Both the position numbers and the translations under genes were made by a program. From the IMG/VR virus record IMGVR_UViG_2711768053_000020, positions 1-45,210 of that record: a DNA stretch of 45,210 nucleotides; one strand, written 5' to 3'. The notes below the pieces were generated by a model. The model saw only the letters and a list, made by a program, of their open reading frames with translations, was not told the origin of the DNA and searched no databases. This stretch comes from a virus. Its lineage: Duplodnaviria; Heunggongvirae; Uroviricota; Caudoviricetes. Positions 1 to 45,210 of this stretch are shown piece by piece. The first letter of the stretch is position 1, and every line of letters begins with the position of its first letter.

Positions 1-834
1 ATGTCATCTTCCATCAAACAACAGATTAGAGATCGCAGCGAGTACATTGGTTTTATCGAAAAATGTTTTGCAAATGCGCATCAATGCTACGTTGTCCATT
101 ATTCATGTGAATCTTTTTATGATGCTGTGGGCGGTAAATCCACAAGGATCACCTCTATTGCTGTCAGAAATTTAGGCAGTGGGCAAACAGATCATTGGGC
201 TCTTAATAGATCCGCAGAATTATTAGGTCTTGATGTTTCAGATGAAAAAAATCTCGATATCCTTGAGCATCATCTATTAGATAACTACTTTACATTCCTG
301 AAAAGATACGCACAATGCACATTTCTGCATTGGAACATGCGAGATAACAATTACGGATTTCAGGCCTTACAGCATAGATTTTCAGTCCTAGGTGGCGAGC
401 CCTTTATACTTACTGATGACAGAAAACTCGATTTAGCGAGAGCTGCCGTTTCTATATATGGACGAAGCTATATTGGGCATACCGCCAAAAGTGGCCGTGC
501 AGGTAGAATGTTAGCTCTTGTTGAAAAAAATGGTATCGCTGATAAAGATGTCTTAGCCGGCGCTGAGGAAGCCGAGGCATATGTCAAAGGTAAGTATAGA
601 GAGCTAGAAATGTCTACATTACGAAAGGTCGACATACTCTGTAATATTGCTGAGCGGATTCATGATCGTACTCTCAAAACTAACAATAAATGGTTTTGGC
701 CAAGAAGCTGGCATCCATATTGGTTAACGATGAGGCTCAAAGAACACCCATTAGTGACTGGATTAATAGTTTTAGGGATTTTCTTAGGTGTAATTACCAA
801 AGGTCTAGATCTATATGCTTGGTGGCAGCAGTAA
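1..834 (+). CDS. hypothetical protein (277 aa) with C-terminal hydrophobic segment
   Basis: ATG at window position 1 and an uninterrupted 277-codon ORF; C-terminal LVTGLIVLGIFLGVITKGL looks like a TM helix. No family recognised by eye. Confidence 0.45.
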   Translation: MSSSIKQQIRDRSEYIGFIEKCFANAHQCYVVHYSCESFYDAVGGKSTRITSIAVRNLGSGQTDHWALNRSAELLGLDVSDEKNLDILEHHLLDNYFTFLKRYAQCTFLHWNMRDNNYGFQALQHRFSVLGGEPFILTDDRKLDLARAAVSIYGRSYIGHTAKSGRAGRMLALVEKNGIADKDVLAGAEEAEAYVKGKYRELEMSTLRKVDILCNIAERIHDRTLKTNNKWFWPRSWHPYWLTMRLKEHPLVTGLIVLGIFLGVITKGLDLYAWWQQ

Positions 835-1046
835 AATGGGGTGTCAGGTCTTTATCGGGACACTGATACGGGGAAAGTTACAATACTGAGGCTGGTTCAC
901 GCTCAGAGCGTCAAAATTGTCCGTCACAGACTCGTCGCATCTGCACTTAATCCATATGACACGGATTGGACAGATTATATCCGATCCCGAACCACGCGTC
1001 TGACTGCACCTGCCGCATCATTTCACAGTGGTGTTTGATAAGGCTT

Positions 1047-1122
1047 GAGCCGTGTGAGCTGGAAACTCTCACGCACGGTTCTTAGAGGGGGCGTTGAAGG
1101 TAACTTCGGTGCCCTACTCGAC
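1047..1122 (+). mobile_element. group II intron 3' remnant (domain V plus domain VI-like hairpin with bulged A)
   Basis: GAGCCGTGTGAG...CTCACGCACGGTTC matches the conserved domain V consensus (GAGCCGUAUG...ACGUACGGUUC) at almost all invariant positions. It is followed by a GC-rich hairpin with an unpaired A near its 3' side. No intact reverse-transcriptase ORF lies upstream. Confidence 0.5.
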
Positions 1123-1170
1123 AAGACCGAAGATAGCAAAAAAACAACCCTACTTCATTCACCGAACTGA

Positions 1171-1476
1171 TGGGTAGCCAATATTCATGGCGGCAATCGG
1201 CAGCGCCCCTTCGAACGTAGTGACGAGGCCGAAGGTTTTTTAATAGTGACGTCTGCGGCCGATGAAGGCTTGGTTGATATACACGACCGACAGCCACTTG
1301 TATTGTCACCGGAGGCAGCCCGGGAATGGGATGCGCCAAGACGCCGAGGCAAGGAAGCAGAAGCGATTACCGACTACGGTGCCGTGCAAGCTGACAAGTT
1401 TATCTGGCATGCAGTTACGCGAGCGATGGGTAATGCGAAAAATCAAGGTGAATATCTTATTGTTTCAATTGAATAA
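1171..1476 (+). pseudogene. SRAP (YedK-like SOS-response-associated peptidase) 3' fragment
   Basis: Frame encodes ...GLVDIHDRQPLVLSPEAAREW..., resembling the C-terminal IHDRMPVIL region of SRAP/YedK proteins. The frame opens only after a stop at 1168-1170 and the N-terminal catalytic part is absent. Confidence 0.45.
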
Positions 1477-1553
1477 TAATGTTTTTACCTCAAATTAGCA
1501 TTATACTATTTCATGCTTTATTTACACCTCTTTAAATTAGGATAACAATTATA

Positions 1554-3302
1554 ATGGAAAACTCTAATAGCAATTTGATTGTAAAAATAGTTCATCTTCT
1601 ACAATCCGAAAGAGATGGACTTATTTTTATTGATGGAAAATGGGGAACAGGTAAAACTTTTTTTATTAAAAATGTATTTCCTCGTTTTTATGATCTTAAT
1701 GTGTTTTATTATATTTCATTACTAGGCGTTAAGTCTCTTGCAGATTTCAAAGCAAAGATTATTGACTGCTACTATCTTCAAGATATAGACACTCTTAAGT
1801 CTGGGTTAGATACTATTTCTGGTTTGGGTAGTGTAAGCAGTGGTTCTCCCGCTAGTGCCAATGTGCTTAATGGTGTGTTCAGTTCCATTGGTTCAAGTGT
1901 AAGAGAGAACATACTCTCCAAACTCAGTGGCATATTTATATTAGATGACATTGAGCGATTAAGCACTCCCTCACTGGCCAATGAAATACTAACTTATTGT
2001 CATTCGTTATATTCAACCTCAAAAATCTCTAGTTTGGATTTTATTGTTATATCTAATACATCTGCCGAATCCCACCTGTCATTAGAACATAAAGAAAAAA
2101 TTATTTCTGATTCACTTCATTACAACCCAAACCCTCGCGACATATTAGATATGAGAATAATTGAAGAAAAACTACAGTACTTCCCCACTGAAGACAAAAT
2201 GATTTTCGAAGAAATAATATCATACCATAACATAGTTAACATAAGAATTTTAATGAGGTGTTTAAATACTGCACTTCCATTATATTTACACGCAGAAAAC
2301 CACCCTGAACTAGAGTGGAAAATCGCCTCTAAAACCATACTAAGCTCAATTTTGTCATATTTTATCTTGTTATTTATCCATAACAAATCCATGGACGAAC
2401 TGATCATTGACAGCATCCAGCATATCCCACCCCAAAATTCCAGCAGCGATGAAAATCCACATGAACCGAGACTTTTGTCTACATTACACAATTATAAAAT
2501 TAATATTCACCTTAAAAATTACTACAGTGGTCATGTTTCTCTTTATGATATATTGGACGATGTTTTTTATGTGCCAACACCTTTAAGTACAATTGATATT
2601 ACAGTTTCAACTCGACCAGAACTACAGGAGACAGATGAAAAAGAATTTTTCCCCACGATTATTGGTTTAATTTCTAGAACAATACCATGTGATTTGCACC
2701 AATGGCTTAGGGCGGTTCAGAACTATGAATATTTGACTTATCATAAATATCTTCCAAAATCATCATTACTAACATTGCAGTTCATGAGTTCTAAATCACT
2801 CGAATTTAGTGACGAGGACATTATTACTTACTTTGAATTTCATAACAACAATCCAATCAGTAGTTGGACTAGTGGCTTTGATGATGGGAAACTTATATTT
2901 TCAATATTATCAGGCCGTCATAATAATATTGAAAAGAGAAAAAACTTAAAGGCAATTAAGGAAATTATTGAAACTGATGGTTGGGCTTTATTTGATGTTA
3001 ACTTATTACTCAAATTAGATCCCATGGGAAACTATAAAACGCTAGAAGTACTTGGCGCACCATTTTTGACCAAGTGCATTTTAAAAGAATGGAGCATTAA
3101 AGATATAGAGCAATTCAACGCTTTTTTAAGAAGTAATTATAGAATTAGTAACATATCTCAGTTTGCCACAAATGAAAAGCAGCGCCTTATATACCTCAAT
3201 CAAAAACTTGACATTTATTTCATAGGTAAGCAAGAAAGTTTTAAATATGGCGCGATATATGATTTAAACAATACAGTAAGACACGCAATTTCTTGCCTAT
3301 AA
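1554..3302 (+). CDS. KAP-family P-loop NTPase (582 aa)
   Basis: Long ORF in visibly AT-rich DNA; N-terminal Walker A within IDGKWGTGKTFF, the GxWGxGKT form typical of KAP NTPases. Confidence 0.75.
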   Translation: MENSNSNLIVKIVHLLQSERDGLIFIDGKWGTGKTFFIKNVFPRFYDLNVFYYISLLGVKSLADFKAKIIDCYYLQDIDTLKSGLDTISGLGSVSSGSPASANVLNGVFSSIGSSVRENILSKLSGIFILDDIERLSTPSLANEILTYCHSLYSTSKISSLDFIVISNTSAESHLSLEHKEKIISDSLHYNPNPRDILDMRIIEEKLQYFPTEDKMIFEEIISYHNIVNIRILMRCLNTALPLYLHAENHPELEWKIASKTILSSILSYFILLFIHNKSMDELIIDSIQHIPPQNSSSDENPHEPRLLSTLHNYKINIHLKNYYSGHVSLYDILDDVFYVPTPLSTIDITVSTRPELQETDEKEFFPTIIGLISRTIPCDLHQWLRAVQNYEYLTYHKYLPKSSLLTLQFMSSKSLEFSDEDIITYFEFHNNNPISSWTSGFDDGKLIFSILSGRHNNIEKRKNLKAIKEIIETDGWALFDVNLLLKLDPMGNYKTLEVLGAPFLTKCILKEWSIKDIEQFNAFLRSNYRISNISQFATNEKQRLIYLNQKLDIYFIGKQESFKYGAIYDLNNTVRHAISCL

Positions 3303-3310
3303 ATTGGCAT

Positions 3311-3347
3311 ACTAAGTCTCAGCCGAATTGTATAACTGAGACTTAGT
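3311..3347. terminator. perfect 12-bp inverted repeat (ACTAAGTCTCAG / CTGAGACTTAGT) between convergent genes
   Basis: Stem-loop with a 13-nt loop located 9 nt after the KAP NTPase stop and upstream of the umuC 3' end; no clean U-tract on either strand. Confidence 0.3.
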
Positions 3348-3425
3348 AATCAAAAATAAGAACATTTGATTTATCGTTTCTAATAAACTCATCCACCGTT
3401 TTCCGAAGAATCTGTCACCGGAAAA

Positions 3426-4700
3426 TCACCTGACAACGGGTAGATCAGAGAATCGGGTGGTGTAACGTGGAGAAAGCATTTCCCGTTTCATCTGCCACTG
3501 CTGCTGGATACCCTGTCCTGCAAAATACAGCGTCCCCCTCCCGCCTTTGGCATTGAGGTGATCCAGCACTTCCATCAGTTTCTCACTGCCCGGGCGCGGC
3601 GCGTTATCATCGAACAAGTTGAGCTGGGCCACGCCCTGACTGAAGAAATCACCCAACATCACCCCGGCTTTCTGATACCGATATCCGTCTTGCCATATGG
3701 CGTCCAGACAGCGGATGGCTGCACTGATGATATCCCGACTGTCCTGCGTAGGCGTCAGAAGCTTCACGGAGGCATTATTGCCATAATAGGGCTCGTTCAG
3801 TGCGAACGGGCTGGTCTTCACAAACGCCGAGATAAAACGGCAATACTGGTGCTCGCCACGCAGTTTCTCTGCCGCCCGCGAGGCATAGCTGCAGATCGCC
3901 TGGCGCATCTCTTCATACTCCGTGATACGACCGCTAAAAGAGCGGGAACAGATAATTTCCTGTTTCACTGGCGCGAATTCTTCCAGTGCCAGGCAGGGTT
4001 CTCCGCGTAACTCACGCACCGTTCGCTCCAGCACGACATTAAAATGTTTACGGATAAAACGGATGTCCGTATCAGCGAGTTGCAGTACGGTCTTGATCCC
4101 CATCGCCTCCAGTTTTTTCGAAATACGCCGACCGATGCCCCAGACTTCATCAACCGGCAGCGCGGCCATCAGTTTGCGCTGGCGATCGACACTGGACAGG
4201 TCTACCACCCCGCCCGTCTGCCGCTGCCATTGTTTGGCCGCGTGGTTGGCCAGCTTGGCCAGCGTCTTGGTCTGGGCAATGCCAACACCCACTGTCAGAT
4301 GCGTTCGCTGCAGAACAGTAGCACGGATTTCACGGCCAAAATCAGTCAGATCACGACAGTTACGTACACCAGTGAGGTCACAAAATGCCTCGTCTATCGA
4401 GTAAATTTCACAGCGCGGCGACATTTCTTCCAGCGTGGTCATCACCCGGTTAGACATATCCGCATACAGCTCATAGTTGCTGCTGAAGCACACCACCCCA
4501 TGGCGCCGGAAAAAGTCCTTCTGCCTGAAGTACGGCTCACCCATTTTGATACCCAGTTTCTTTGCCTCTGTGCTGCGGGCAATAACACAACCGTCATTGT
4601 TGGAAAGCACCACAACCGGCCTACCTTTGAGATCCGGGCGAAATACAGTTTCACAGGAGGCATAGAACGAGTTCACATCACACAACGCGTACATGATCAA
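3426..4700 (-). CDS. umuC: DNA polymerase V catalytic subunit UmuC (Y-family polymerase)
   Basis: 424 aa; N-terminus [20 protein letters not shown]...[15 protein letters not shown] and colinear similarity along the whole length to enterobacterial UmuC; start overlaps the umuD stop (ATGA). Confidence 0.95.
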
Positions 4701-5119
4701 CCCGTCGATTTCACGATGAACGTCACCACACCAAAAACATCGAGCGTTTCTTCGCTCCCGATGATGATAGGCGACCAGGCGCGGTTTTCAGGGTTAAGCT
4801 GGACAGTTGGCCATAACTGTAGGCGCTTAACGGTAAATTCCCCGTCCACCGCAGCAATAACGATATCGCCGTGCTCTGCCTTGCGTGAACTGTCCACTAC
4901 CAGTAAATCGCCTTCGCCGATCCCGGCATCAATCATCGAGTCACCAGATGCCTTAACGAAGTACGTGGCGCTGGGGTGTTGTATCAGTAGCTCGTTAAGA
5001 TCGATACGCTGTTCAACGTAGTCCTGAGCAGGGCTTGGGAAACCACAGGGTACAAGATCGCCATAGAGTGGAAGCGGCTGCACTGCACGCAACCCGGAGG
5101 GAGTGAAAAACTGCATCAT
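4697..5119 (-). CDS. umuD: UmuD (LexA-like self-cleaving SOS mutagenesis protein)
   Basis: Contains [18 protein letters not shown] and [17 protein letters not shown]...[17 protein letters not shown] motifs of UmuD. The track ORF begins at a TTG (5131); the tandem ATG ATG at 5114-5119 is the more likely start. Confidence 0.9.
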
Positions 5120-5135
5120 AATCACCGTCAATTAA

Positions 5136-5223: not shown

Positions 5224-5775
5224 TTACCTGGTTGCCGGAAATTTTTTATATAGCGTCGATATCCCAACATCGTAAATTAATGCCACACGCTGTCGTGATT
5301 CACCTGCTGCAACCAACCTTCCTGCCTGCGCCCACTGTTCATCAGTTAGCTTTGATCGACGCCCACCTATTCGCCCTTCTTCACGAGCCGCAGCCAATCC
5401 CGCCCTGGTACGTTCGACTATCAGCTCCCTTTCCATTTCGGCAAGTGCGCCCATGACATGGAAGAAAAAGCGTCCCATTGGTGAAGACGTATCTATGCTG
5501 TCGGTCAGGCTGCGAAAGTTAATACCCTTTTCCCGAAGCTCCTCCACCAAAACGACAAGATGCCGCATGCTGCGACCGAGTCGATCCAGTTTCCAGACCA
5601 CCAGCGTGTCACCTGCCGATAATGTCCTGAGCAGCTTTTTCAGTCCTGGTCTGTCGGACTTTGTACCGCTTATCTTGTCTTCAAAAATCAGCTCACATCC
5701 TGCACAGTTCAGCGCATTACGTTGTAGATCTGTGTTCTGGTCATTTGTTGACACACGTACATAGCCAATAAGCAT
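5224..5775 (-). CDS. serine recombinase, DNA invertase of the Pin/Gin/Hin/Cin family
   Basis: MLIGYVRVSTNDQNTDLQRNAL N-terminus with catalytic Ser, VVWKLDRLGRS and SPMGRFFFHVMGALAEMERELIVERT motifs, C-terminal HTH; likely start is the internal Met (MLIGYV). Confidence 0.9.
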   Translation of the reverse strand: MLIGYVRVSTNDQNTDLQRNALNCAGCELIFEDKISGTKSDRPGLKKLLRTLSAGDTLVVWKLDRLGRSMRHLVVLVEELREKGINFRSLTDSIDTSSPMGRFFFHVMGALAEMERELIVERTRAGLAAAREEGRIGGRRSKLTDEQWAQAGRLVAAGESRQRVALIYDVGISTLYKKFPATR

Positions 5776-5801
5776 GGTAGATCTCCCTGACAAAAGCAGG
5801 A

Positions 5802-6338
5802 ATGATGCCATTTGCTCGTTATTTCTGTATTTTCATAAACGTTGGTTTGGGAGAAGGCTCAGCATTACCTGTTGGGGTGCCTGTTCCGTGGCCTTCAGAG
5901 ACACCTCCAACAGGCTGGCTGAAATGCAACGGGGCGGCTTTTTCTGCTGAAGAATACCCGGAACTGGCAAAGGCTTACCCGACAAATAAATTGCCTGATT
6001 TACGAGGTGAATTTATTCGTGGCTGGGATGATGAACGTGGTGTGGATAGTGGGCGAACTCTGCTTTCAGCGCAAGGAGATGCTATTCGAAACATTACTGG
6101 CGGTTTTGGTCAGTTGCGCGTAAACAGCGAAATTAATGCAATTGTCGATGTTCAAAGCGTGAGTGGGGCTTTTTACGGAGGTACCTCCGTCCGGAATAAC
6201 ATCAATGTATCTATGACATACGCTAATGACCGAAAAATCCGACAAGATGTTCACTTCTCGGCGGCAAATGTTGTTCCAACAGCAAATGAAAATCGTCCAC
6301 GTAACATCGCCTTTAATTATATTGTGAGGGCCGCATGA
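5802..6338 (+). CDS. alternative tail-fibre C-terminal segment (silent orientation, promoterless exon)
   Basis: Frame reads through the crossover site (…NVGLGEGSALP…) so that inversion would fuse it to the constant N-terminus of the tail-fibre gene; WPSETPPTGWLKCNGAAFSAEEYPELAKAYP looks like a tail-fibre receptor-binding tip. Confidence 0.6.
   Translation: MMPFARYFCIFINVGLGEGSALPVGVPVPWPSETPPTGWLKCNGAAFSAEEYPELAKAYPTNKLPDLRGEFIRGWDDERGVDSGRTLLSAQGDAIRNITGGFGQLRVNSEINAIVDVQSVSGAFYGGTSVRNNINVSMTYANDRKIRQDVHFSAANVVPTANENRPRNIAFNYIVRAA
5830..5855. repeat. invertase crossover site (gix/hix-like 26-bp site), copy 1
   Basis: TTTTCATAAACGTTGGTTTGGGAGAA; the half-site TTGGTTTGGGAGAA is the reverse complement of the half-site inside the tail-fibre gene at 7799-7824. 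Confidence 0.6.
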
Positions 6339-6940
6339 TGAATAAAGCCGTATTGAATAGTGAACTCATTGCCATAAAAGCGGGAGACATTATCATTTAT
6401 AATTATGATGGTGAAACGCGGGAATATATTTCTACATCAACTGAATATCTCGCTGTCGGCGTCGGTATCCCGGCATGTTCCTGTTTGGATGCACCAGGTA
6501 CACATAAAGCTGGTTATGCAATCTGTCGCTCTGTAGATTTAAATTCATGGGAATATGTGCCAGACCATCGCGGTGAAGTTGTCTATAGTACCGAAACGGG
6601 AGATACCAAAGAAATCGCAGTTCCGGGTGATTATCCTGAAAATACAACCACTATCGCCCCGTTAACGCCATACGATGAATGGGATGGTGAGAAATGGGTG
6701 ACCGATACTGAAGCACAGCATAGCGCCGCAGTAGGCGCGGCAGAAGCACAGCGTCAGTCACTGATTGATACTGCAATGGCTTCCATTAGTCTGATTCAAC
6801 TGAAATTGCAGGCCGGGCGGAAGCTGACGCAGACAGAAAACACCCGACTTAACGCTGTGCTGGATTACATTGACGCGGTGACGGCAACAGATACCAGCAC
6901 CGCGCCGGACGTCATCTGGCCTGAACTGCCGGAGGCGTAG
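6335..6940 (+). CDS. tail fibre assembly protein (alternative copy, U'-like)
   Basis: 201 aa, follows the alternative fibre segment with a 4-bp overlap; C-terminal ...DYIDAVTATDTSTAPDVIWPELPEA resembles Tfa chaperones. Confidence 0.75.
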   Translation: MMNKAVLNSELIAIKAGDIIIYNYDGETREYISTSTEYLAVGVGIPACSCLDAPGTHKAGYAICRSVDLNSWEYVPDHRGEVVYSTETGDTKEIAVPGDYPENTTTIAPLTPYDEWDGEKWVTDTEAQHSAAVGAAEAQRQSLIDTAMASISLIQLKLQAGRKLTQTENTRLNAVLDYIDAVTATDTSTAPDVIWPELPEA

Positions 6941-7355
6941 GCCATTCAATATCTGGCGCACCGGAAGTATCAACCAGTTCCAGTGCGTCCAGATAATCCA
7001 GCCATAAATTATATTGTTCCAGCTCGTCACCTTTCAGACGACCAATAGCAGCTTTGCCAGGCCACTGATGGGTATTGATGTAGGTATTGACTTCTGAAAC
7101 CAAAGATATTTTTTTCATTTCAGCCGTCAACACCTCATCCTCTTTTGAAGGTGGTGGGGAATTAATCCATACTGGCCGTCCTGAACTGTCAGCGCCAATT
7201 TCTTTCCCTTCTGGATGCAGACCAAGAAATTGCTCATATGTTTCTCTGGTAATTTCAATAACATCATCAGGAAGCGTTCCCGCATCCTCATATTCTGGAA
7301 ACAATTCTTGCAGATAAAAACTTTTACTCCCGGGTGAAAAGAATACTGAGTTCAT
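6912..7355 (-). CDS. tail fibre assembly protein (expressed copy, U-like)
   Basis: 147 aa directly downstream of the tail-fibre gene; C-terminal ...DYLDALELVDTSGAPDIEWPTPP parallels the other Tfa copy. Confidence 0.8.
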   Translation of the reverse strand: MNSVFFSPGSKSFYLQELFPEYEDAGTLPDDVIEITRETYEQFLGLHPEGKEIGADSSGRPVWINSPPPSKEDEVLTAEMKKISLVSEVNTYINTHQWPGKAAIGRLKGDELEQYNLWLDYLDALELVDTSGAPDIEWPTPPAVQAR

Positions 7356-7357
7356 TA

Positions 7358-8101
7358 TTACCGTCCAATGATTAACGCTGAGACGCTGGTATCTGAAGGA
7401 AAGGCTGCATTCAGTGGTTTGTCGACTTTGAACACAATCGTATTATTCCCCCTGACAGCGGCAAAAGAACAAACCGCAGTCGCGTATGAACCTGTAATAT
7501 TACTGGATACACCACCATAAGCTGTTGTTGATACCAGAGGGACAACGCCCAGCACCTTATTAGGAAATACAAAGGGCAATGTGGCTGTGGCAATATAAGA
7601 CTTATTAGAGCCTGTGATGGCATAAGCATTATCAGTCATTCCATTCATCGCCACCGGGCCGCTTATACTTACAGTAACCATCTGAATGATTAGCCCGTCA
7701 GGTTGACGAATCACAAAATTTCCATTGCCACCAGTAACCGTCCAGAAAGACATATCAGGGATTTGGTTTTCCCCGTTGCCCACATTCCGTTTTGCCGCTT
7801 CTCCCAAACCAAGGTTTTCGAGAGCTGTTTTCACCGTGCCATCCGATTTGATATCGCCAAACGGATTCTTGCGGCTTAACAGCAGCGCACGAAGCGCGGT
7901 AAGCAGCTGGTCATGCCGCCCCTTCTCCAGGCTGGCACCGGATGCCTCCACAACGCTGCAAAGCTCCTCCTGCAACATGTCAAAGTAGTCATCATCCAGA
8001 TCGGTGGCAGGCGTGCCGGTCTGGGGGTTACCACGGGTAAAACCGTTCTTACCCGCGCCGAACTTATCCTTCTGCGCGGTTTTCGTGTCTATACGATGCA
8101 T
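7358..8101 (-). CDS. tail fibre protein (constant N-terminus plus currently expressed variable C-terminus)
   Basis: 247 aa ending the tail operon, immediately after the baseplate genes; crossover site embedded at residues about 94-101. Confidence 0.8.
7799..7824. repeat. invertase crossover site, copy 2 (inside tail-fibre gene)
   Basis: TTCTCCCAAACCAAGGTTTTCGAGAG in inverted orientation relative to 5830-5855; falls at codons about 94-101 (LGLGE) of the tail-fibre gene. Confidence 0.6.
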
Positions 8102-8689: not shown

Positions 8690-9738
8690 GAAATCGTCCC
8701 CAGAACCGCCAGTTCATTTTTCGCAATGGAGATATTGTCTGCCGGTGCAAGCAACTGATGGCTGTATTCCCCGTTCGCACCGGAAATCGCTTCACTGATA
8801 CGCGATACCTTCAGTTCTCCCTGCGGATAACCATCACGCAGCAGGAACGAACGCAACTCTGCGGTGATGGCAGCCCGTATTTCCGGTGTGTCCGGCGTCA
8901 CGCGGATATGAAAATCCACCGTATGCGCCACCGGCCTGAACACATACAAATCAGAACCTGCCACCGGGGCCAGTGGCTCGATGTGTTGTCGTACTGCCGT
9001 TTCCGTTGACTCTTCCGGAATGGGATTAATCAGGTCACTGCCGGCAATCATCACACCGACAGTTCCCGTTCCCATCCAGTGGCGGTATGTCCATGCGCGG
9101 GTAATGCCGGGCACTTCTTTAGCCCAGACGACATAGTCCCCGTCAGCCCCGCCCTGCGGCGTCCAGTAATACCGCTCAATGACGCGGGCGCGCCACGTTT
9201 CCAGCTCTTCAGTATCAAATCCGCCTGTCAGAGTGTCAGCCACACCGGAAGACGGCAGACCATTCACCGGCGTGACCAGGATTAATGCCGTACCGTCGTC
9301 AGCGTTACCGACCGCGCCTGCACTTGAGCAGGCGATCGGCACGCGCAGGACACCACCGGAGCTGGTTGCATCGGCAGTTGCCGTGTACTGAACCAGGTCA
9401 TCGCGCTGAATAACACTCCCGGCAGTCACTTTCAGGCCATCGCTGACACCTTCCCAGCGCATATACCCGCTGGCAGCCGTGGCCCCCTTGCGCGGACACC
9501 GTTTCATCGCAGCATGTCGCGCCAGCCAGGACTCATCGCACAGGTCAGGCAGCATGTTCATTGCCAGATAATCGATGTAACCGTAAACCGTATGCAGCGC
9601 CGCCGCATACACCTTTGCCCGCACGTCTTCATCCATGCGCCGGAGCGTGTCGCTGACGTCCAGCCTGGCGAATAAATCGTTACGGAGCATACTGATATTT
9701 TCTGCCAGCGTCGGGCGCTGAAATTCACTGTCCGCCAT
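8680..9738 (-). CDS. baseplate J-like protein (Mu gp47-like)
   Basis: 352 aa, overlapping neighbours in the tail operon; size and position match baseplate wedge protein J. Confidence 0.8.
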
Positions 9739-36989: not shown

Positions 36990-37208
36990 GTGGAGAAACA
37001 TATGCTGAACCTCGATTGTGTTCCTATCTCAACTTATTGCAAAGAAACTGGCGAAACTACTGAAGCTATAAACAAACGTGTACAGCGCGGTGTTTGGCGT
37101 GAAGGCGTTCAGGTTTTAAAGGTTGAAGGCGTTAAGGAGAGGTGGATTGATCTTAGTGAGGTTGCAAAATGGGCCAGACAAAACTGCTCAAACTACCGCG
37201 CGGCGTAA
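36990..37208 (+). CDS. xis: excisionase (Xis-like)
   Basis: 72-aa basic protein immediately upstream of and overlapping the integrase gene. Confidence 0.65.
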   Translation: MEKHMLNLDCVPISTYCKETGETTEAINKRVQRGVWREGVQVLKVEGVKERWIDLSEVAKWARQNCSNYRAA

Positions 37209-38344
37209 CAATCAGGAAACACCGCCAGGACGAAACGATCAATATAACTTTCACCTACAAAGGAGTTAAATGCCGTGAGCCTCTTTCCAATCTGGAAGTA
37301 ACACCAAAGAACATTAAATACGCTGAGCGTACACTCGGCGAAATTCATAATAAGATCGAAAGGGGAACATTCATTTATGCGGAATATTTTCCCCGTTCTG
37401 CTCGTTTGAAAATTTTTGGTAATGCTGCCGCAGGCAAAACGGTAAAAATGTATCTGGACGAATATCTTGAAATCTGCGAAACGAGAAAACTTTCTCCCTC
37501 TACGATTGGTGGTTATAAAAAATGCCGTAGTGCGTTAGCCTCACTTCACATTTGTCCTGCAAGTGAATTAACACCAGCAATCCTGAAAGCGTGGATTCAA
37601 AATCAGAAAACGACCTTAAAAACAATTCGCAACCAGTTATCTTTCCTGCGGTCAGCACTTGATGAAGCCGTAACCGATGGGGTACTTCAAATTAACCCCG
37701 TATCGTTAGTAACTGCTTCACGCTACCAAAGTGATAAGTCAGAAGCAGAAAGCAACTACGTGGTTGATCCGCTATCACCAGCAGAAGTTGATGCATTACT
37801 AGCAGCTGCTGGAAATAAACAATGGGAGAATCTGTTCCGGTTCGCCATACATACAGGCCTGCGTAGTTCTGAATTATGTGCCCTTAGATGGCGTGATATC
37901 GACTTTGTTGGAAAAACTGCCCATGTCCAGAGCGCAAGTGTTGTCGGTGTTATCAAAGGAACAAAGACAAAAGCCGGTACTCGTAAAGTTGAACTGACAG
38001 AAGAGGCAATGTTGGCGCTGATAAATCAGAAGCCATTTACATTCATGAAGGATGCTACTGTCTTTGAAGATCCAAAGACAAACAAACCGTGGGCCAGCGC
38101 CGATGCGATAAGGAAAAAAGCGTGGATACCAACCTTACGTAAAGCAGGTATCCGGTACCGTAACCCATATCAGACCAGGCATACTTTCGCCACCAGCCAT
38201 ATCAGCCGTGGTGCGAACCTGTTCTGGCTTGCAGGCCAGATGGGCCATAAGGGACCAGAAATGCTATTTCGTCACTATGGCAGTTACCTTGCTGCATATG
38301 ACGGACATACCGCTAAAAATACTAATGATACAAAACAGGCATGA
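37169..38344 (+). CDS. int: tyrosine integrase (lambda-type site-specific recombinase)
   Basis: 391 aa; C-terminal catalytic region with R...HxxR...Y pattern (NPYQTRHTFATSHISRGANLFWLAGQMGHKGPEMLFRHYGSY). Confidence 0.9.
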   Translation: MGQTKLLKLPRGVTIRKHRQDETINITFTYKGVKCREPLSNLEVTPKNIKYAERTLGEIHNKIERGTFIYAEYFPRSARLKIFGNAAAGKTVKMYLDEYLEICETRKLSPSTIGGYKKCRSALASLHICPASELTPAILKAWIQNQKTTLKTIRNQLSFLRSALDEAVTDGVLQINPVSLVTASRYQSDKSEAESNYVVDPLSPAEVDALLAAAGNKQWENLFRFAIHTGLRSSELCALRWRDIDFVGKTAHVQSASVVGVIKGTKTKAGTRKVELTEEAMLALINQKPFTFMKDATVFEDPKTNKPWASADAIRKKAWIPTLRKAGIRYRNPYQTRHTFATSHISRGANLFWLAGQMGHKGPEMLFRHYGSYLAAYDGHTAKNTNDTKQA

Positions 38345-38639
38345 TGCTGCCCGAACAAATAGCCACTGAAACCTGATAAAAAGTTATTTGTGATGTGGTT
38401 ATGTTCGTCATATCCACATCATACATACTTAAACATAAGGCACTTTTTACCTTGCAAAAATTCGAACCAAGCATATATGTTATAGGTGAACTTGGTACTC
38501 AGGCAGCTGTCCTAGTACTAGGAACACGCGGGAAATCTTGGAGCCAGTACGTAGATTATGGTAAAATCCCGCGCCCCGTTTTGCGGGGAGCAATAAATGC
38601 CTCAAAAGGATACATTGGGGGGACTGAAAGGAGGTCTTT

Positions 38640-38888
38640 ATGTCAGAACTAGTCATGAAGATGTTTGGGCTGAATGATTTGGTCAAAGGCGGACAAGCCA
38701 TGGCCGATCGTTTGAACAAATCTGGTGTTAAAAACATCAAGGTCGTAGGGCGTGGTGCAGTTATTGTAGACCCATCTACTGACCCAGAAAAAATCACTCA
38801 GCTTAGGAAAGCAGCTAGAAAATTCGTCGAGCAGGATGCAAAAGCTGTTGCAGCCGCTAAAGCTAACTCAATGGACAATGACGACTAA
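38640..38888 (+). CDS. hypothetical small protein (82 aa)
   Basis: ATG preceded by AAGGAGGT; first gene of a two-gene AT-rich cassette. Confidence 0.5.
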   Translation: MSELVMKMFGLNDLVKGGQAMADRLNKSGVKNIKVVGRGAVIVDPSTDPEKITQLRKAARKFVEQDAKAVAAAKANSMDNDD

Positions 38889-38891
38889 CAA

Positions 38892-39710
38892 ATGTTTGCA
38901 TTGCTGATCATTCCACTTTTAGTAAGTGGATCCTTACTGGTTACATCGCCCCATAACATCAAATTATTCTATCGACTCCACCGTTACGACGGCCAGCTTC
39001 TCTATATGAAGGTGGCCACGTACGGTGTGTACTCGTTCATTGTTGCAGTCGTGCTGGCGTATGCAACCAAGTACTTTATACCAAGCCTTACACTGGTCAC
39101 ATGGGTATCACATCTTATTGATGGTAGTGCAGACCCTAAAGAAAACAGGATAACATCATGGCTCATCCTGCTATCAGTGGCGACTTGTGGAGTTGCTTTT
39201 ATTTGGTTGCAGATATGCAAATTTCGTATGTTTGTGGCAGCAAAAACTATTAGTTCTGCATCCAATAATGCAATTTCTATCAATTTCGCAAAGCAACTAA
39301 TCAGGCTTAATGAGTTGGAAAAACTGTTGTCTGATGGCTCACTTGGTCAGCTATTCTTTGATTCAGCGACTACAAACAGACCGGTACTGATAAGCCTGAA
39401 ATGCCGCAAAGTATATGTCGGAACAGTTAACATGATTAGTGAGCCAAACGAAAAACAAGGCCCTAACCTTGAAATTTCTATTAGCCCAATCATGTCTGGT
39501 TACAGGGACAAGGACACACTAAGGGTCCTGTTTTCAAATGATTACAACGATCTTGATGGAGTTGATACCAGTATCATATTTCCATTAAGTGAGGTTTCGC
39601 ATGCTTCTTGGTTCAATATGGATATACATGAAAAAGTAGACAATAACCGAGAGAAGAAACCAGAAACAAACCGCAAGAAAAAACGTAAATATGGCAGGAC
39701 TACGAATTGA
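38892..39710 (+). CDS. hypothetical membrane protein (272 aa)
   Basis: Starts 4 nt after the upstream stop; N-terminal half with several hydrophobic helices, C-terminal half soluble and basic at the end. Confidence 0.55.
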   Translation: MFALLIIPLLVSGSLLVTSPHNIKLFYRLHRYDGQLLYMKVATYGVYSFIVAVVLAYATKYFIPSLTLVTWVSHLIDGSADPKENRITSWLILLSVATCGVAFIWLQICKFRMFVAAKTISSASNNAISINFAKQLIRLNELEKLLSDGSLGQLFFDSATTNRPVLISLKCRKVYVGTVNMISEPNEKQGPNLEISISPIMSGYRDKDTLRVLFSNDYNDLDGVDTSIIFPLSEVSHASWFNMDIHEKVDNNREKKPETNRKKKRKYGRTTN

Positions 39711-39784
39711 TAGTAAAATATCCGCAAAAGAGCCGTAAGAACCAACTTTAAATTTTATTCGTTATAAATCAATGCATTGCAAAT

Positions 39785-39820
39785 ATTCGGACACGGGTTC
39801 AACTCCCGCCAGCTCCACCA
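39785..39820 (+). other. ssrA: tmRNA (ssrA) / tRNA-like 3'-end fragment ending in CCA; probable att remnant
   Basis: ATTCGGACACGGGTTCAACTCCCGCCAGCTCCACCA has T-arm, acceptor 3' strand and CCA, and from memory matches the 3' terminus of enterobacterial ssrA with one mismatch; no 5' portion of the RNA gene is present upstream. Confidence 0.55.
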
Positions 39821-39985
39821 CTTTTTAGTTGTTTGAAGTTCAATGAAGTCTACTAAGCCCACACAGCACAAGCTCTGCGGGCTTTTTTACGTCTATTGTC
39901 GTCCAGTGAGAATTGCTGAGAACTACGAGTTATGGCACCCTGAATGGGACCCATTAAGAAGGGTCCAAAAACCGAGGGTCCCAAA

Positions 39986-41215
39986 ATGGCAAAAATCGCT
40001 AAGAAGCTCACTGACACTGAAATCAAAAGCACCAAGCCAGCCGATAAAGAAATCAACTTGTTTGACGGTGATGGTCTGATTCTACGAATCGCTCCTTTGG
40101 CGAAAGGAGGCAAGAAAAATTGGTATTTCAGGTATGCAGTACCAGTGAGCAAGAAAAGAACCAAAATGAGCCTTGGGACATATCCTCACCTTACCCTTGC
40201 AAGAGCCAGAGCCTTACGTGATGAATATCTCTCCTTTCTGGCAAATGGTGTTGATCCCCAAATCCATAACAACGATAAGGCGAAGGCATTAAAGAGTGCT
40301 ACTGAGCACACTCTCCAAGCCGTAGCGCGGAAATGGTTAGATGAGAAGGTAAAGACATCAGGTATCTCACAAGACCATGCAGCAGACATCTGGCGCAGCT
40401 TAGAGAGAAATGTCTTTCCCGGTCTGGGTAATGTCCCTATCAATGAGATCCGACCTAAGCTCTTAAAACAACACCTTGATCCTATTGAGCAACGAGGCGT
40501 ATTGGAAACTCTACGCCGTATCATTTCACGTCTGAATGAAATCTTCCGGTGGGCAGCTACTGAAGAACTTATTGAGTTCAACCCGGCTGACAACCTTGGT
40601 CAAAGATTCAGTAAACCAAAAAAGCAAAATATGCCTGCCCTTCCCCCAAGCGAATTGCCAAGGTTTATGGAATCTTTGACGAATGCGTCAATCCGGTTGG
40701 AAACACGTATGCTAATTGAATGGCAATTGTTGACATGGGTTCGTCCGGGTGAAGCCGTTCGCGCAAGGTGGTCTGATATTGATACAACCAACAGCATTTG
40801 GAACATTCCTGCTGATTTCATGAAAATGAAAAAGCTTCACAAAGTTCCTTTGAGTAAAGAAGCTTTGCGCATCCTTGAATTAATGAAATCAATAAGTGGG
40901 CATAGAGAATGGGTTTTCCCCAGCATAAAAGCGCCTCTTAATCATATGCATGAACAAACAGCCAACGCAGCTATCATCCGAATGGGGTTCGGAGGCGAGC
41001 TTGTAGCTCACGGTATGCGTTCTATTGCACGAACAGCGGCAGAGGAGTCTGGTAAATTCAGAGCTGAAGTTCTTGAGGCAGCGCTTGCCCACTCGAAAAA
41101 AGATGAAATTATCGCAGCATACAATCGTGCAGAATATCTGATAGAGCGACAGAGTTTGATGCAATGGTGGAGTGATTACGTTCAAGCTCAAAGATCAAAT
41201 GCTCTGGTAGCCTAA
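39986..41215 (+). CDS. P4-type tyrosine integrase
   Basis: N-terminal MAKIAKKLTDTEIKSTKPADKEINLFDGDGLILRIAP...NWYFRY is the characteristic P4-integrase N-terminus; C-terminal ...AHGMRSIARTAAEESG...AALAHSKKDEIIAAYNRAEY catalytic region; directly downstream of the tmRNA-like fragment. Confidence 0.9.
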   Translation: MAKIAKKLTDTEIKSTKPADKEINLFDGDGLILRIAPLAKGGKKNWYFRYAVPVSKKRTKMSLGTYPHLTLARARALRDEYLSFLANGVDPQIHNNDKAKALKSATEHTLQAVARKWLDEKVKTSGISQDHAADIWRSLERNVFPGLGNVPINEIRPKLLKQHLDPIEQRGVLETLRRIISRLNEIFRWAATEELIEFNPADNLGQRFSKPKKQNMPALPPSELPRFMESLTNASIRLETRMLIEWQLLTWVRPGEAVRARWSDIDTTNSIWNIPADFMKMKKLHKVPLSKEALRILELMKSISGHREWVFPSIKAPLNHMHEQTANAAIIRMGFGGELVAHGMRSIARTAAEESGKFRAEVLEAALAHSKKDEIIAAYNRAEYLIERQSLMQWWSDYVQAQRSNALVA

Positions 41216-41253: not shown

Positions 41254-41670
41254 ATGGAAACCCTATTCAAAGTTTTTGAAAAATTTAGTTCCAGACCACT
41301 TTTTTTTATTTTTTTCGGACTCTCACTTTGTGAATTTTTTCAGAAACAATCTGTTCTGATGAATCCATCAGCAGATAACATCGCGAAATTATTCGCAGCC
41401 ATGATATTAGTTGTTTTTTTTACTTGGGGATTTGAATGGCTAATCTTCAAGTTCAATGTAAACCTTGAACCTCATGATCAAGGCGATATTGGACCAACAA
41501 TTGGAACGGCTACTTTAGCTGTATACTTAGTTTATGCCTTTCACTTTCTCAGTGAAAATCCTGAAGCATTAAATTTAAAGTTATTAACTAACTCTGGCTT
41601 TATATACAGCACAACTCTATTATTATTCTCATTAGAATGCATGAAGCTTAGAAGACTTAAACAAAAATAA
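41254..41670 (+). CDS. hypothetical small membrane protein (138 aa)
   Basis: AT-rich ORF with about four hydrophobic segments, immediately after the integrase. Confidence 0.5.
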   Translation: METLFKVFEKFSSRPLFFIFFGLSLCEFFQKQSVLMNPSADNIAKLFAAMILVVFFTWGFEWLIFKFNVNLEPHDQGDIGPTIGTATLAVYLVYAFHFLSENPEALNLKLLTNSGFIYSTTLLLFSLECMKLRRLKQK

Positions 41671-41741
41671 ACAACATCATTGTGATGATAAATATAAAAT
41701 AGGCATGGCGAAAAAAAATCACCACGCCTAAAATATAATAA

Positions 41742-43508
41742 TTATGGTAGCATCATTGATACATAATCCACACCAATCCTTGAGCTATACTGAGACGCTA
41801 TAGCCTGATATCTTTCTGCATAACCAGTTCTCAGTTGAGATTTAAGTTTGAGTCGGACAGGAACATTTTGCACGTTGCCATCCATATTACTTAAAAACAC
41901 GGCAGAAATAATATTTTTTTCTTCGCCATCAACTGTTGTTCCATGATTCAACACCACCATATAATCAACAACAGGAAGCGTTTTATCCCCTTCGAAAATA
42001 GAGAGATATTTTCTTTGATTTTTATGCATTACATATATATATTTCGAATGTTCAGCAAATGGCAATGCTTTACTCTGACTGGCGTTAAAAAGCTCCAGAA
42101 CTTTAATGAGCCTGTGCGGACTTAATCTTACATGGTGAGGGTCGTTACCCTGAGTAGGAACCAAATCACATGCCGCAGATACACATAAATACCATTTGTT
42201 CGACTCTGTATCAAAGAAAATAGTGCCAGTAGAAATATGACCATCTTCAAAATTCTTTGAAGACAAATTCATATTTAAAGCATGATACATTTCGTGATAA
42301 GTATCATTATTTGATGGCAGATCCATTTTTGAAGAGCAATATTGGAGCAATGCAGCAACTCCGCTGTTAGCGTATTCATTTGAATAGCTATCAAAAACAC
42401 TTTTGATAAATTCATCCAGCGTATTATTATTTTTAAGTCTTTGATAAAGCTCTTCTGATAAATTACCAAATACAAAGTCAATATTTCTACATCTAATATC
42501 AGGCGAGTCTGATTTTAATATCTCATTTAACCACGCAGCTTGACCGTAATGATCGTTAGCCAAATGATTTACAAAAGATAAAGCCTCAGCTTCGATTGCA
42601 TTCTGAATTTCAGATTTTATTAACTGATAATAAGATGGTTTCCATTCAATGAGAGAATCATTGAGAGTTTGCCAAATCCTATCTCCATCGTTTTCATGAT
42701 CATCTTGAACCTTATGAAATAGGGAGACAAAGATATTACCACATTGAATCCATTTTACTCCGCTTTCATCACCCCGAATGACATTGCCAGATGTGTTGCT
42801 AGAAATAATTGCATTTCTAGACACAGCATATTCTGCAATCATTTTTGCAATGAAGTTTTTATCCTTTTGATCCTCCAACACAGCATCATCATGTATTAAT
42901 CTTTTAATTCTTCTACAAGGCTTACTGTCTTTAATATAGGCTATTGTTTCATCTCTTGTGAGAGCTTTATTACCATTATCATTTAAGTTCGGTAATACAA
43001 CGTCTTCCCAATAACTTTGGACATCTTCATTATCGTAGTCAATGATCAAGCTGTTGATATCCAGAGCACCTTTGAGAGTCGATGATATCTGCATCCAAAC
43101 CGTTTCTAAATTCTCTCTAGTATATATTACAATCATATTTAAATGATCGGAGTCTTTCAAATCTTGTAATAGTTTAAGTGTTTTATCAGGTGCATTATTA
43201 TCAAGATGATAATCTACAATAATAAGATCTGATTTTCTAATCCGATCCACATCGAAATTAACAGAACCATTGTCAACATCACAAATCATATTTTTAGATT
43301 GAAAAAAGCTCTCAAGAGTAGCGGCTCGTTTAGATGAGTCAATTTTGTTGTAGTCTAAATCAACTTCGTTATTCAACGCCCTGATTGATTCAGAATACGT
43401 CAGAAAATCGTCATCAATCATGACAACGGAACGAATTGCATTTTCGCAGAAAGTTTTCTGGACAAGAGAATTATAATTTGCCACTGTCATATTAGAACTC
43501 CACTCCAT
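41742..43508 (-). CDS. receiver (REC)-like domain protein with unassigned C-terminal domain (588 aa)
   Basis: N-terminal region has REC hallmarks in order: acidic pair (VVMIDDDF), putative phospho-acceptor Asp (DLIIVDYHL), conserved Thr (MIVIYT); about 400 further residues unrecognised. Start overlaps the upstream kinase gene by 17 nt. Confidence 0.7.
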   Translation of the reverse strand: MEWSSNMTVANYNSLVQKTFCENAIRSVVMIDDDFLTYSESIRALNNEVDLDYNKIDSSKRAATLESFFQSKNMICDVDNGSVNFDVDRIRKSDLIIVDYHLDNNAPDKTLKLLQDLKDSDHLNMIVIYTRENLETVWMQISSTLKGALDINSLIIDYDNEDVQSYWEDVVLPNLNDNGNKALTRDETIAYIKDSKPCRRIKRLIHDDAVLEDQKDKNFIAKMIAEYAVSRNAIISSNTSGNVIRGDESGVKWIQCGNIFVSLFHKVQDDHENDGDRIWQTLNDSLIEWKPSYYQLIKSEIQNAIEAEALSFVNHLANDHYGQAAWLNEILKSDSPDIRCRNIDFVFGNLSEELYQRLKNNNTLDEFIKSVFDSYSNEYANSGVAALLQYCSSKMDLPSNNDTYHEMYHALNMNLSSKNFEDGHISTGTIFFDTESNKWYLCVSAACDLVPTQGNDPHHVRLSPHRLIKVLELFNASQSKALPFAEHSKYIYVMHKNQRKYLSIFEGDKTLPVVDYMVVLNHGTTVDGEEKNIISAVFLSNMDGNVQNVPVRLKLKSQLRTGYAERYQAIASQYSSRIGVDYVSMMLP

Positions 43509-45210
43509 TGAACTGGATCACAAAATTAGCGCCATCTTTTATTAAATAGTTATCGCCTTCATCAGGTTCTGAATACCATATTTTATGATGTGCAACAGCA
43601 AGGTTTTCTCGACATAGATACAGACCTACCCCATGTCCATTTGCTCTTTTGCTATAAAATAGTTCAAATAGTCGCGGGATATCATCGGTATCAATTGCCG
43701 GACCAGAATTTGCTATGATAACCAAAGAATTCACAAAACCAATCTTTATGAGCCTATTATTTGACAGACTGACCCAATACATTGCATTGTTGATAATATT
43801 AGTAAAAACAGGATAGATCCTTGATGGTATATCTGTTATTGCGATTTGCTTAAACTCTTCACTAAATTCAATAGTTATTCGTTGCCGTTCGAAACGCTCC
43901 CCAAAGAACTTCAGGACATAATCCATGATATTTTTTCCAGTTATTCTCTGCCTGGATTGATAACCTGATATTTTCAAAGGTGATAAGAAACGTATTTGTT
44001 GAGTAAGCGATCTGTGAGCATTTAACGCCAATGAAAAACCAGGGTGTTCTTTTACAGAAGTAGGAAGAGAGTTTAGTCCTCTGGTTACCATAGAATCCAT
44101 TTCTTCAAGTTCATGAGATATTATCTCAACACTAATACCTAACTGTGCAAGCGCGTTTAAACTTTTAGCTTTTTCTTCAAAATATGAGCGTTCTTCTTCA
44201 GATAATGAGAATGCTGAATCTAAGTTTATACCTTCAAATAATCTATCGAGACCTTTTATTATTGATTGATATTTGAAAGTTAGGGTATCAACTGACTCAA
44301 CATATAAACTATCGAGCAAATTAAACACATTTTCAATTTGTGAATCATTATCTATTGAATCAACAACTGATATAGTTTTAGCATAATAATCACTTCGATC
44401 AACCTTTATTTCATCGGCCCATTTTTTTAAAAGAGAATGTATCTTCTCCTCTATCGTGTTATTAAACTTAGTTAGTTTAGAATTAATAATACCTTGATTT
44501 TTTTCAAGGTGATTTTTCGCTGACAATGAAGGCTCAAGTTTATTTAATTCAGAATCAAGTTTATTAATTGCTAACTTCATTTGTAGAATATACGCAGAGA
44601 ACTCATTAAATTTATCTCTGTAGTCTCTATATTTCTCTTCATACATTCCAAGTTTTGGAGGTTTGATAGGCGTTTTAATTTCACTGCGCAACGCATCTAA
44701 GTTTGTAAGATCACTGTCTATAATTTTAAGATAGTTTAAATCTAACGAACCATCAGTTTTATCAAGCTTAGTTTTCAGCCTTTTAACAGCCTCCAAGGAA
44801 GCATCAAGAACTGGTGTCTGATTCTTCAAAGCTTCTGAAAAACTTTTTTGTGTTGATTTTCGAGCTTGTTGTTGAGCAGATTTTCTTAACTCTTTTTCAC
44901 GCTTAACTTGTTCTAAAAGCTCTTTACGGTCATCAGAACGTGAACCAAAAAATCTATCAGCAAGTTCAGTTAACAAATTAGATATAATAGTTTTCAGTTC
45001 TCTTGCAGCCTGGTTTCTTATGAATCCCTCTCTCCCCGACTTATCTTTCAGCTCTTTATTACTGGATTGAGTAATTCCAATATAACCAAAAATCCTTCTA
45101 TTAGACCAATAATATCGCCCTGCATTCCATGAACGTCTTTCTTCTATCTGGAAGAAATCATTATCTACTCGACCATAAGGTAATACTCTCAAGCTATCCC
45201 TAAAAATCAT
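43492..45210 (-). CDS. cytoplasmic histidine kinase-like protein (572 aa)
   Basis: C-terminal core with H-box (ISHELEEMDSMV), N-box (NIINNAMYW), G1 (ANSGPAIDTDD) and G2 (GHGVGLYLCRE); about 380-aa N-terminal region is coiled-coil-rich with no TM segment. ATG coincides with the last window base. Confidence 0.75.
   Translation of the reverse strand: MIFRDSLRVLPYGRVDNDFFQIEERRSWNAGRYYWSNRRIFGYIGITQSSNKELKDKSGREGFIRNQAARELKTIISNLLTELADRFFGSRSDDRKELLEQVKREKELRKSAQQQARKSTQKSFSEALKNQTPVLDASLEAVKRLKTKLDKTDGSLDLNYLKIIDSDLTNLDALRSEIKTPIKPPKLGMYEEKYRDYRDKFNEFSAYILQMKLAINKLDSELNKLEPSLSAKNHLEKNQGIINSKLTKFNNTIEEKIHSLLKKWADEIKVDRSDYYAKTISVVDSIDNDSQIENVFNLLDSLYVESVDTLTFKYQSIIKGLDRLFEGINLDSAFSLSEEERSYFEEKAKSLNALAQLGISVEIISHELEEMDSMVTRGLNSLPTSVKEHPGFSLALNAHRSLTQQIRFLSPLKISGYQSRQRITGKNIMDYVLKFFGERFERQRITIEFSEEFKQIAITDIPSRIYPVFTNIINNAMYWVSLSNNRLIKIGFVNSLVIIANSGPAIDTDDIPRLFELFYSKRANGHGVGLYLCRENLAVAHHKIWYSEPDEGDNYLIKDGANFVIQFNGVEF

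Follow-up and report, generated by a model that had tools for sequence, protein, structure and literature searches.

A displaced ssrA 3' end marks the probable right attachment site of an LLS-type prophage that adjoins a P4-type island

The gene for transfer-messenger RNA (tmRNA), ssrA, is reportedly a hotspot of integration at which mobile elements come to lie in tandem arrays (Williams 2003, 'Traffic at the tmRNA gene', listed as ref. 27 in PMC4383910). Elements that target tRNA and tmRNA genes (tDNAs) bear the 3' end of the gene in their phage attachment site (attP), and their integration restores the gene while displacing its original 3' end (Islander paper, PMC4383910; phage LLS paper, PMC12315714); the tmRNA gene was the most enriched target in the Islander study (PMC4383910). 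Two described elements are the closest to the locus considered here. One is phage LLS (PQ299149), whose integration into the ssrA 3' end was deduced from a 29-bp identity and whose authors noted that unrelated integrases have converged on ssrA (Genome Res 2025, PMC12315714). The other is CP4-57, a cryptic prophage of Escherichia coli K-12 with a P4-type integrase, IntA, at ssrA (Kirby et al. 1994, as cited in PMC12315714 and PMC10107115); use of its distal copy on excision deletes U357 of the tmRNA (PMC10107115). In this work we analyzed a 45,210-nt stretch of Caudoviricetes DNA (IMG/VR record IMGVR_UViG_2711768053_000020, positions 1 to 45,210; hereafter the window), in which a 35-nt copy of the ssrA 3' end lies between a prophage integrase gene and a P4-type integrase gene. 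The fragment is very probably the right attachment site (attR) of the prophage, the left attachment site (attL) being a regenerated ssrA just beyond the left edge of the window, as judged from the sequence comparisons given below.

The fragment occupies positions 39786-39820 of the plus strand and reads TTCGGACACGGGTTCAACTCCCGCCAGCTCCACCA; the last 35 nt of annotated E. coli tmRNA genes read TTCGGACGCGGGTTCAACTCCCGCCAGCTCCACCA (e.g., positions 8794-8828 of genome L005, and also L006). The two agree at 34/35 positions; only 39793, which lies in the first T-stem pair, is altered, from G to A. The final 27 bp, 39794-39820 (CGGGTTCAACTCCCGCCAGCTCCACCA), equal the last 27 nt of ssrA. A T-arm with four of its five stem pairs intact, the 3' acceptor strand and ACCA are present, with no further 5' part, and the T corresponding to tmRNA position U357 is retained at 39814. 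When up to three mismatches were allowed, a 26-mer of this core occurred once in the window, against a chance expectation of 0.00 from 100 shuffles, and no second copy was found in the window at that tolerance. Across the whole window, ARAGORN reported no tRNA or tmRNA and Rfam reported no tmRNA at the gathering threshold; under permissive settings, the sole tmRNA match from Rfam was truncated on its 5' side, ended at 39820 and scored 22.8 bits vs a gathering threshold of 47. A tmRNA gene, as defined by RF00023 or ARAGORN with both acceptor strands and the tag reading frame, is therefore not what the fragment represents, and its near-identity to the tmRNA 3' end is instead that of an Islander-type displaced 3' tDNA fragment. 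An earlier note, made from this DNA sequence alone, had recognized a 35-nt T-arm, acceptor strand and CCA without the rest of an RNA gene, had placed it between a lambdoid prophage integrase region and a P4-type integrase, and had proposed a comparison with the host ssrA. Each of these points agrees with what was found: the match is to the last 35 nt of ssrA, and the fragment is flanked by a tyrosine integrase gene that ends at 38344 on the left and the P4-type integrase gene that starts at 39986 on the right. Two cargo open reading frames (ORFs) in this interval had gone unmentioned.

To describe the junctions we denote the core O, the phage arms P and P', and the arms of the bacterial target B and B'. 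Alignment of attB-like, attL, attR and attP sequences gave a shared 27-bp core, 39794-39820 in the window and invariant in all four, with arms exchanged as site-specific recombination predicts. Because the arms swap around an invariant core in this four-way alignment, the fragment is assigned as the prophage attR, P-O-B'. The stretch to the left of the core, 39711-39793 (plus strand), is the phage-derived P arm; it was the same in other lysogens whatever DNA lay to the right, and it is unlike the sequence upstream in ssrA, although its part 39786-39792 is still ssrA-like. All attR copies examined have the A at 39793, which no intact ssrA shares. Since this A is phage-specific and lies just outside the 27-bp core, strand exchange must fall within 39794-39820.

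The limits of homology on the two sides of the fragment meet within it. In genomes with other right-hand DNA, homology to the left element ended exactly at 39820, the final A of CCA; where the fragment is missing the T that corresponds to U357, as in a subset of these genomes, it ended at 39813 instead. In phage-free genomes, homology to the right element began inside the fragment, at or before 39794. These limits uphold the proposal of the earlier note that the fragment is the duplicated core left by integration into a tmRNA gene.

The empty site, B-O-B', was sought with a chimera in which window sequence from 39821 onward follows the 3'-terminal 99 nt of genuine ssrA, used as a query against 5,426 complete E. 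coli genomes. Direct joining of ssrA to the island leader was found in 1,206 of these at ≥80% query coverage, and the chimera was matched end-to-end at 100% identity in many E. coli genomes. The phage-free locus of AMSHJX01 has the order smpB, ssrA, the same P4-type integrase gene and the same Response_reg_2 and HEF_HK genes. The comparison with an uninterrupted locus that the note had called for is thereby available. A tyrosine integrase gene within the interval (37169-38344, with an excisionase gene at 36990-37208), a site empty of the phage in relatives (up to 1,206 genomes, AMSHJX01 among them) and the attP of an unintegrated element (LLS) are features of an Islander-type integration.

The left junction, B-O-P', was present in SZQ1, TA8571 and CP55_Sichuan as an intact ssrA followed by atcatgattggacggtg. 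In SZQ1 and CP55_Sichuan, sequence equal to window position 1 begins 172 nt past the intact ssrA in the same orientation, and window position 1 corresponds to position 9001 of L005, likewise 172 nt beyond the end of ssrA. CP55_Sichuan carries a collinear 40-kb prophage that runs from ssrA to the fragment, with homology to the window ending exactly at 39820. By extension from these near-identical relatives, 172 nt would separate the end of ssrA from position 1 in the window's own genome. The earlier note had been unable to identify att sites for the prophage by eye; the fragment itself is very probably the attR, and the intact ssrA that near-identical lysogens have at a distance of 172 nt the attL.

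Free phage LLS carries the unintegrated arrangement, P-O-P', as one contiguous stretch; the site bears the annotation 'tmRNA pseudogene / attP' and follows xis, int and one cargo gene. An attP reconstructed from the window P arm, the core and the P' arm matched free LLS across the junction. The window prophage and LLS share the gene order xis-int-cargo-attP and the same core, and their P' arms are 89.8% identical over 194 nt. They differ in the length of the exact core (29 bp in LLS; 27 bp in the window phage, with an A mismatch next to it), in the P arm, in the cargo of the slot between int and attP, and in the virion, which is that of an SfV-like myovirus in the window prophage vs lambda-like in LLS. 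The prophage integrase (37169-38344, plus strand; 391 aa; Pfam Arm-DNA-bind_2, Phage_int_SAM_5 and Phage_integrase) is 85% identical to that of LLS, and the predicted target of this LLS-type integrase is the ssrA 3' end. The start of int is overlapped by the gene for a 72-aa excisionase (36990-37208, plus strand; phrog_2917, E 1e-44), in the xis-int order of LLS.

We propose that a temperate phage of about 40 kb, by means of its LLS-type integrase, would have recombined its attP with the last 27-29 bp of ssrA. The attP would have carried its own copy of the ssrA 3' end, so that at the left junction (attL) integration would leave ssrA whole again, and the 3' end originally there would have moved about 40 kb downstream, with phage DNA now 5' of the fragment. 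The ssrA that was targeted would already have been trailed by a P4/CP4-57-type island that used the same gene earlier. At the left junction of the source genome we would predict an ssrA ending in GGACGCGGGTTCAACTCCCGCCAGCTCCACCA, followed by atcatgattggacggtg. The phage P' arm provides a terminator for the regenerated ssrA, and the displaced core retains the terminator supplied by the island (approximately 39855-39888). Excision is expected to restore an unaltered ssrA, unlike excision of CP4-57, because no base of the core, T39814 (U357) among them, departs from wild type. The prophage bounds can accordingly be set at the ssrA CCA 172 nt before the window on the left, as read from relatives, and at 39820 on the right. 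Annotation of the region then separates three units, namely the prophage, the cargo slot between int and attP, and an older decayed island, and the tmRNA gene would remain intact in the lysogen. The use of ssrA by unrelated integrases, tandem arrays at this gene, CP4-57 and LLS-type integration were all already known, and the pairing of cargo and island seen here is merely a new combination of common modules.

Several points weigh against this assignment. The window begins inside the prophage, and the intact ssrA of the source genome lies out of view, with the left junction taken from relatives. Neither the 5,426 complete E. coli genomes nor the GTDB species representatives contained the exact pairing of cargo and island. 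Arm-type integrase sites were not identified, and the reconstructed attP held no exact 9-mer repeats. That the prophage excises by recombination of attL with attR through Int and Xis is something we infer from sequence. The order of acquisition, for which island first and phage second seems the better account, is not provable from the structure of the junction alone. A recurring motif, GGACA(C/A)C, was considered as an arm-type site; it was noticed by eye only and is not claimed as such.

The same sequences bear on the history of the locus. Two independent integrase genes follow one tDNA in series, and the predicted order of the array is ssrA, prophage, fragment, island, with the displaced core serving also as the left junction of the island. 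As in the tandem tDNA arrays treated by Islander, a regenerated tDNA and a displaced 3' fragment lie at the ends of an element, and each member has an integrase. Unlike an array that satisfies the strict Islander definition of a tandem, the second member appears to have lost its distal fragment and would fail that definition; no distal tDNA fragment of its own was seen in the relatives examined (AMSHJX01 and WP2-S18). The int-cargo-fragment module precedes at least five different right-hand sequences: the native backbone with csiD, a CP4-57-type integrase gene, an integrase-less AAA-ATPase island, P' scars, and the island of the window. An island with an identical leader follows an intact ssrA in about 12 other enterobacterial species, and the leader follows fragments, in tandem arrays, in four to five more species, including Superficieibacter with the same GGACAC fragment. 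The earlier note's suggestion that the P4-type island and the DNA to its left were acquired separately is supported by the occurrence of the same prophage with other right-hand DNA and of ssrA joined to the island in phage-free genomes. Of the two members, the phage, which would lie beside the regenerated ssrA, is probably the later arrival and the island the earlier one.

The opposite order, in which the phage came first and the island later entered the displaced fragment, has only a slim chance of being correct. The full 27-bp core is retained in the fragment and might suffice as a target, and the anatomy of the junction is identical for either order. In relatives, however, the island is truncated by IS3, lacks a distal att copy and is in the same state whether the genome is phage-free or phage-bearing. 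It is this shared state of decay in both kinds of relative that marks the island as probably old and immobile. The phage-free junction of ssrA with the island was found in 1,206 genomes vs at most 137 for this P arm, and the phage module fronts many different right-hand sequences. The newest element of a tandem at a tDNA also normally lies beside the regenerated gene, as a matter of general knowledge and of Islander logic (PMC4383910), which places the phage last.

In several strains a further P' arm lies to the right of the fragment, so that an attP-like P-O-P' arrangement precedes csiD, in some cases with a decayed core (approximately 7900-8100 in L013, L014, L015 and L018; 20082-20300 in L005). 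Phages of the same family that entered ssrA earlier, or in tandem, left these P-O-P' junctions as scars. Fragments without the T of U357 were seen in some strains (L005 20082-20107 and L013 7902-7928; GCCAGCCCACCA), and the T-less sequence GCCAGCCCACCA bears the same lesion as that reported for ssrA after CP4-57 excision.

A role of the fragment in a functional RNA, either a small RNA (sRNA) like IsrM or a tRNA-like 3' end of a cargo transcript that ends at the terminator 35 nt downstream, is slightly less probable again than the reversed order of arrival. Positions 39744-39888 gave a partial Rfam match to the Salmonella virulence sRNA IsrM (RF02763; E 1e-15), which in LT2 lies directly upstream of an integrase gene (PMC2330248). 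The terminator at approximately 39855-39888 is strong, the cargo genes are oriented toward the fragment and no terminator precedes it. The match, however, scored 58.5 bits vs a gathering threshold of 376 for the 329-nt model, and on that score membership in IsrM was rejected. Only the last ~70 model positions matched, and these correspond to the island arm and the terminator; 212 central model positions are replaced by 38 nt. The 35-mer itself, from whose T-stem a pair is missing, folds no better than shuffled sequences (z -0.9), no promoter-like site precedes the fragment except a weak one at 39691-39719, and a role as an att site fully accounts for the conservation. We would give only an outside chance to the related idea that the cargo operon reads through the tmRNA-like half to approximately 39888, giving an IsrM-related small RNA that is perhaps regulatory or interacts with tmRNA-processing factors.

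The likeness to IsrM is confined to its 3' portion, of which ~70 nt are homologous to window positions 39818-39888; nothing in the window corresponds to its first ~250 nt. IsrM, too, is found a short way 5' of an integrase gene. In the genomes compared (L020 and L032), these 3' ~70 nt of IsrM consist of a decayed ssrA core (CGCCAGCCACCA in S. diarizonae, L032; GACGCCAGCCAC in the Rfam consensus), a P4-type leader and a terminator. An ssrA att junction 5' of an integrase gene thus seems to be the origin of IsrM itself, a link that we did not find stated in the literature examined.

Least probable of all is that the fragment belongs to the island only, as its attL or a remnant, with the prophage having entered elsewhere nearby at att sites of its own: the fragment does sit 165 nt upstream of the P4-type integrase gene, the usual place of a P4-type attL, with island DNA on its right, but 39711-39793 accompanies the prophage rather than the island, the same P arm and core are contiguous with the other end of the prophage in free LLS, phage-free strains have a whole ssrA rather than a fragment before the island, and prophage homology terminates exactly at CCA.

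With the fragment taken as the prophage attR, the DNA from 39821 to 39985 (plus strand) is the left arm of the island and forms B' for the phage. It is 100% identical to the DNA right after the intact ssrA in AMSHJX01 and many other genomes. The rho-independent terminator within it (approximately 39855-39888; free energy -15 kcal/mol, z -4.1) serves ssrA in phage-free strains, and the terminator and island arm are conserved after ssrA in 17 species. The integrase gene that follows (39986-41215, plus strand) encodes a P4/CP4-57-type tyrosine integrase of 409 aa with Pfam domains Arm-DNA-bind_3 (PF13356, DUF4102), Phage_int_M (PF22022) and Phage_integrase (PF00589); its NCBIfam NF007246 score of 440.6 bits vs a cut-off of 434 places it in this type. 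It is 47% identical to the CP4-57-like integrase of CP55_Sichuan and shows only 26% identity, over 130 aa, to the prophage integrase. The island resembles CP4-57 in its integrase family and in the position of the integrase gene directly after the ssrA core. It differs from CP4-57 in its leader and in its cargo (HEF_HK/Response_reg_2), and the window fragment keeps the T of position 357, which the CP4-57 distal copy does not.

The island cargo (41254-45210) comprises a 138-aa ORF on the plus strand and, on the minus strand, a Response_reg_2 gene (41742-43508) and a HEF_HK/HATPase_c gene (43492-45210), with domains PF19192, PF19191 and PF02518. These genes were 99.9% identical after ssrA in AMSHJX01. 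HEF_HK and Response_reg_2 form a domain pair described in predicted conflict systems. Among PADLOC models, the pair had no match beyond one weak one, and it lies in low-GC DNA (32-36% over 41742-45210, minus strand). In relatives the island is a 5.5-kb remnant that ends at IS3 and a truncated ygaQ. The earlier note had expected a second core copy at the far end of the island; searches with a 17-mer at ≤2 mismatches and a 26-mer at ≤4 mismatches found none within 20 kb downstream in AMSHJX01 or within ~13 kb in WP2-S18, where the island is truncated by IS3, and this expectation failed in the related genomes.

Between int and attR, the slot that precedes attP in the free phage holds a two-gene cargo cassette (38640-39710, plus strand) made up of an 82-aa ORF (38640-38888) and a 272-aa ORF (38892-39710), spaced by 3-4 nt. 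The proteins belong to phrog_35771 and phrog_3630, respectively, both of unknown function, and neither Pfam nor PADLOC gave a match for the pair. An AlphaFold2 model of the larger protein (pLDDT 80) predicts membrane-like helices at the N-terminus and an Sm/LSm-like barrel at the C-terminus. Other genes occupy the slot in LLS, WP2-S18 and SZQ1; gp31 of LLS was considered as a homologue of the 272-aa protein and is not homologous. Homologous pairs with 32-38% identity were found beside unrelated integrase or other mobile-element genes in Klebsiella and Serratia (also in L036-L041). This distribution suggests that the cassette is a mobile moron, possibly with a role in exclusion or defence.

The body of the prophage (1-37168) is collinear with that of CP55_Sichuan and carries accessory genes next to the P' arm, an SfV-like tail, head and terminase module, and lambdoid lysis, replication and immunity genes. 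Its structural genes are 96-98% identical to those of SfV and vB_EcoM-689R6. The earlier note had called the prophage lambdoid, which stands for the early and regulatory genes and fails for the structural module, an SfV-like myovirus one; judged from its genes, the prophage is a hybrid of the two.

The prophage end that would lie beside ssrA (1-5131) holds accessory genes. These encode a 277-aa phrog_8766 protein of unknown function (1-834), a KAP/P-loop NTPase that resembles the PADLOC candidate PDC-S49 (1554-3302), and a umuD/umuC-like error-prone polymerase pair (approximately 3426-5131, minus strand). Domains V-VI of a group II intron were matched at the Rfam gathering level at 1045-1122 (plus strand; 53.6 bits), with no reverse-transcriptase ORF nearby. 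This piece adjoins a truncated pseudogene of an SOS-response-associated peptidase (approximately 1139-1476) and was found in only three of the 5,426 E. coli genomes, in which no full-length relative of the intron remnant was present; its probable origin is the deletion of an intron that left the 3' stub behind. Farther inward, an invertase gene (5224-5811, minus strand) adjoins oppositely oriented tail-fibre and tail-fibre-assembly genes. This arrangement suggests that 5224-8101 is an invertible segment governing host range, of the kind found in Mu, P1 and e14, and the same region is the least conserved one between the window and its closest relatives.

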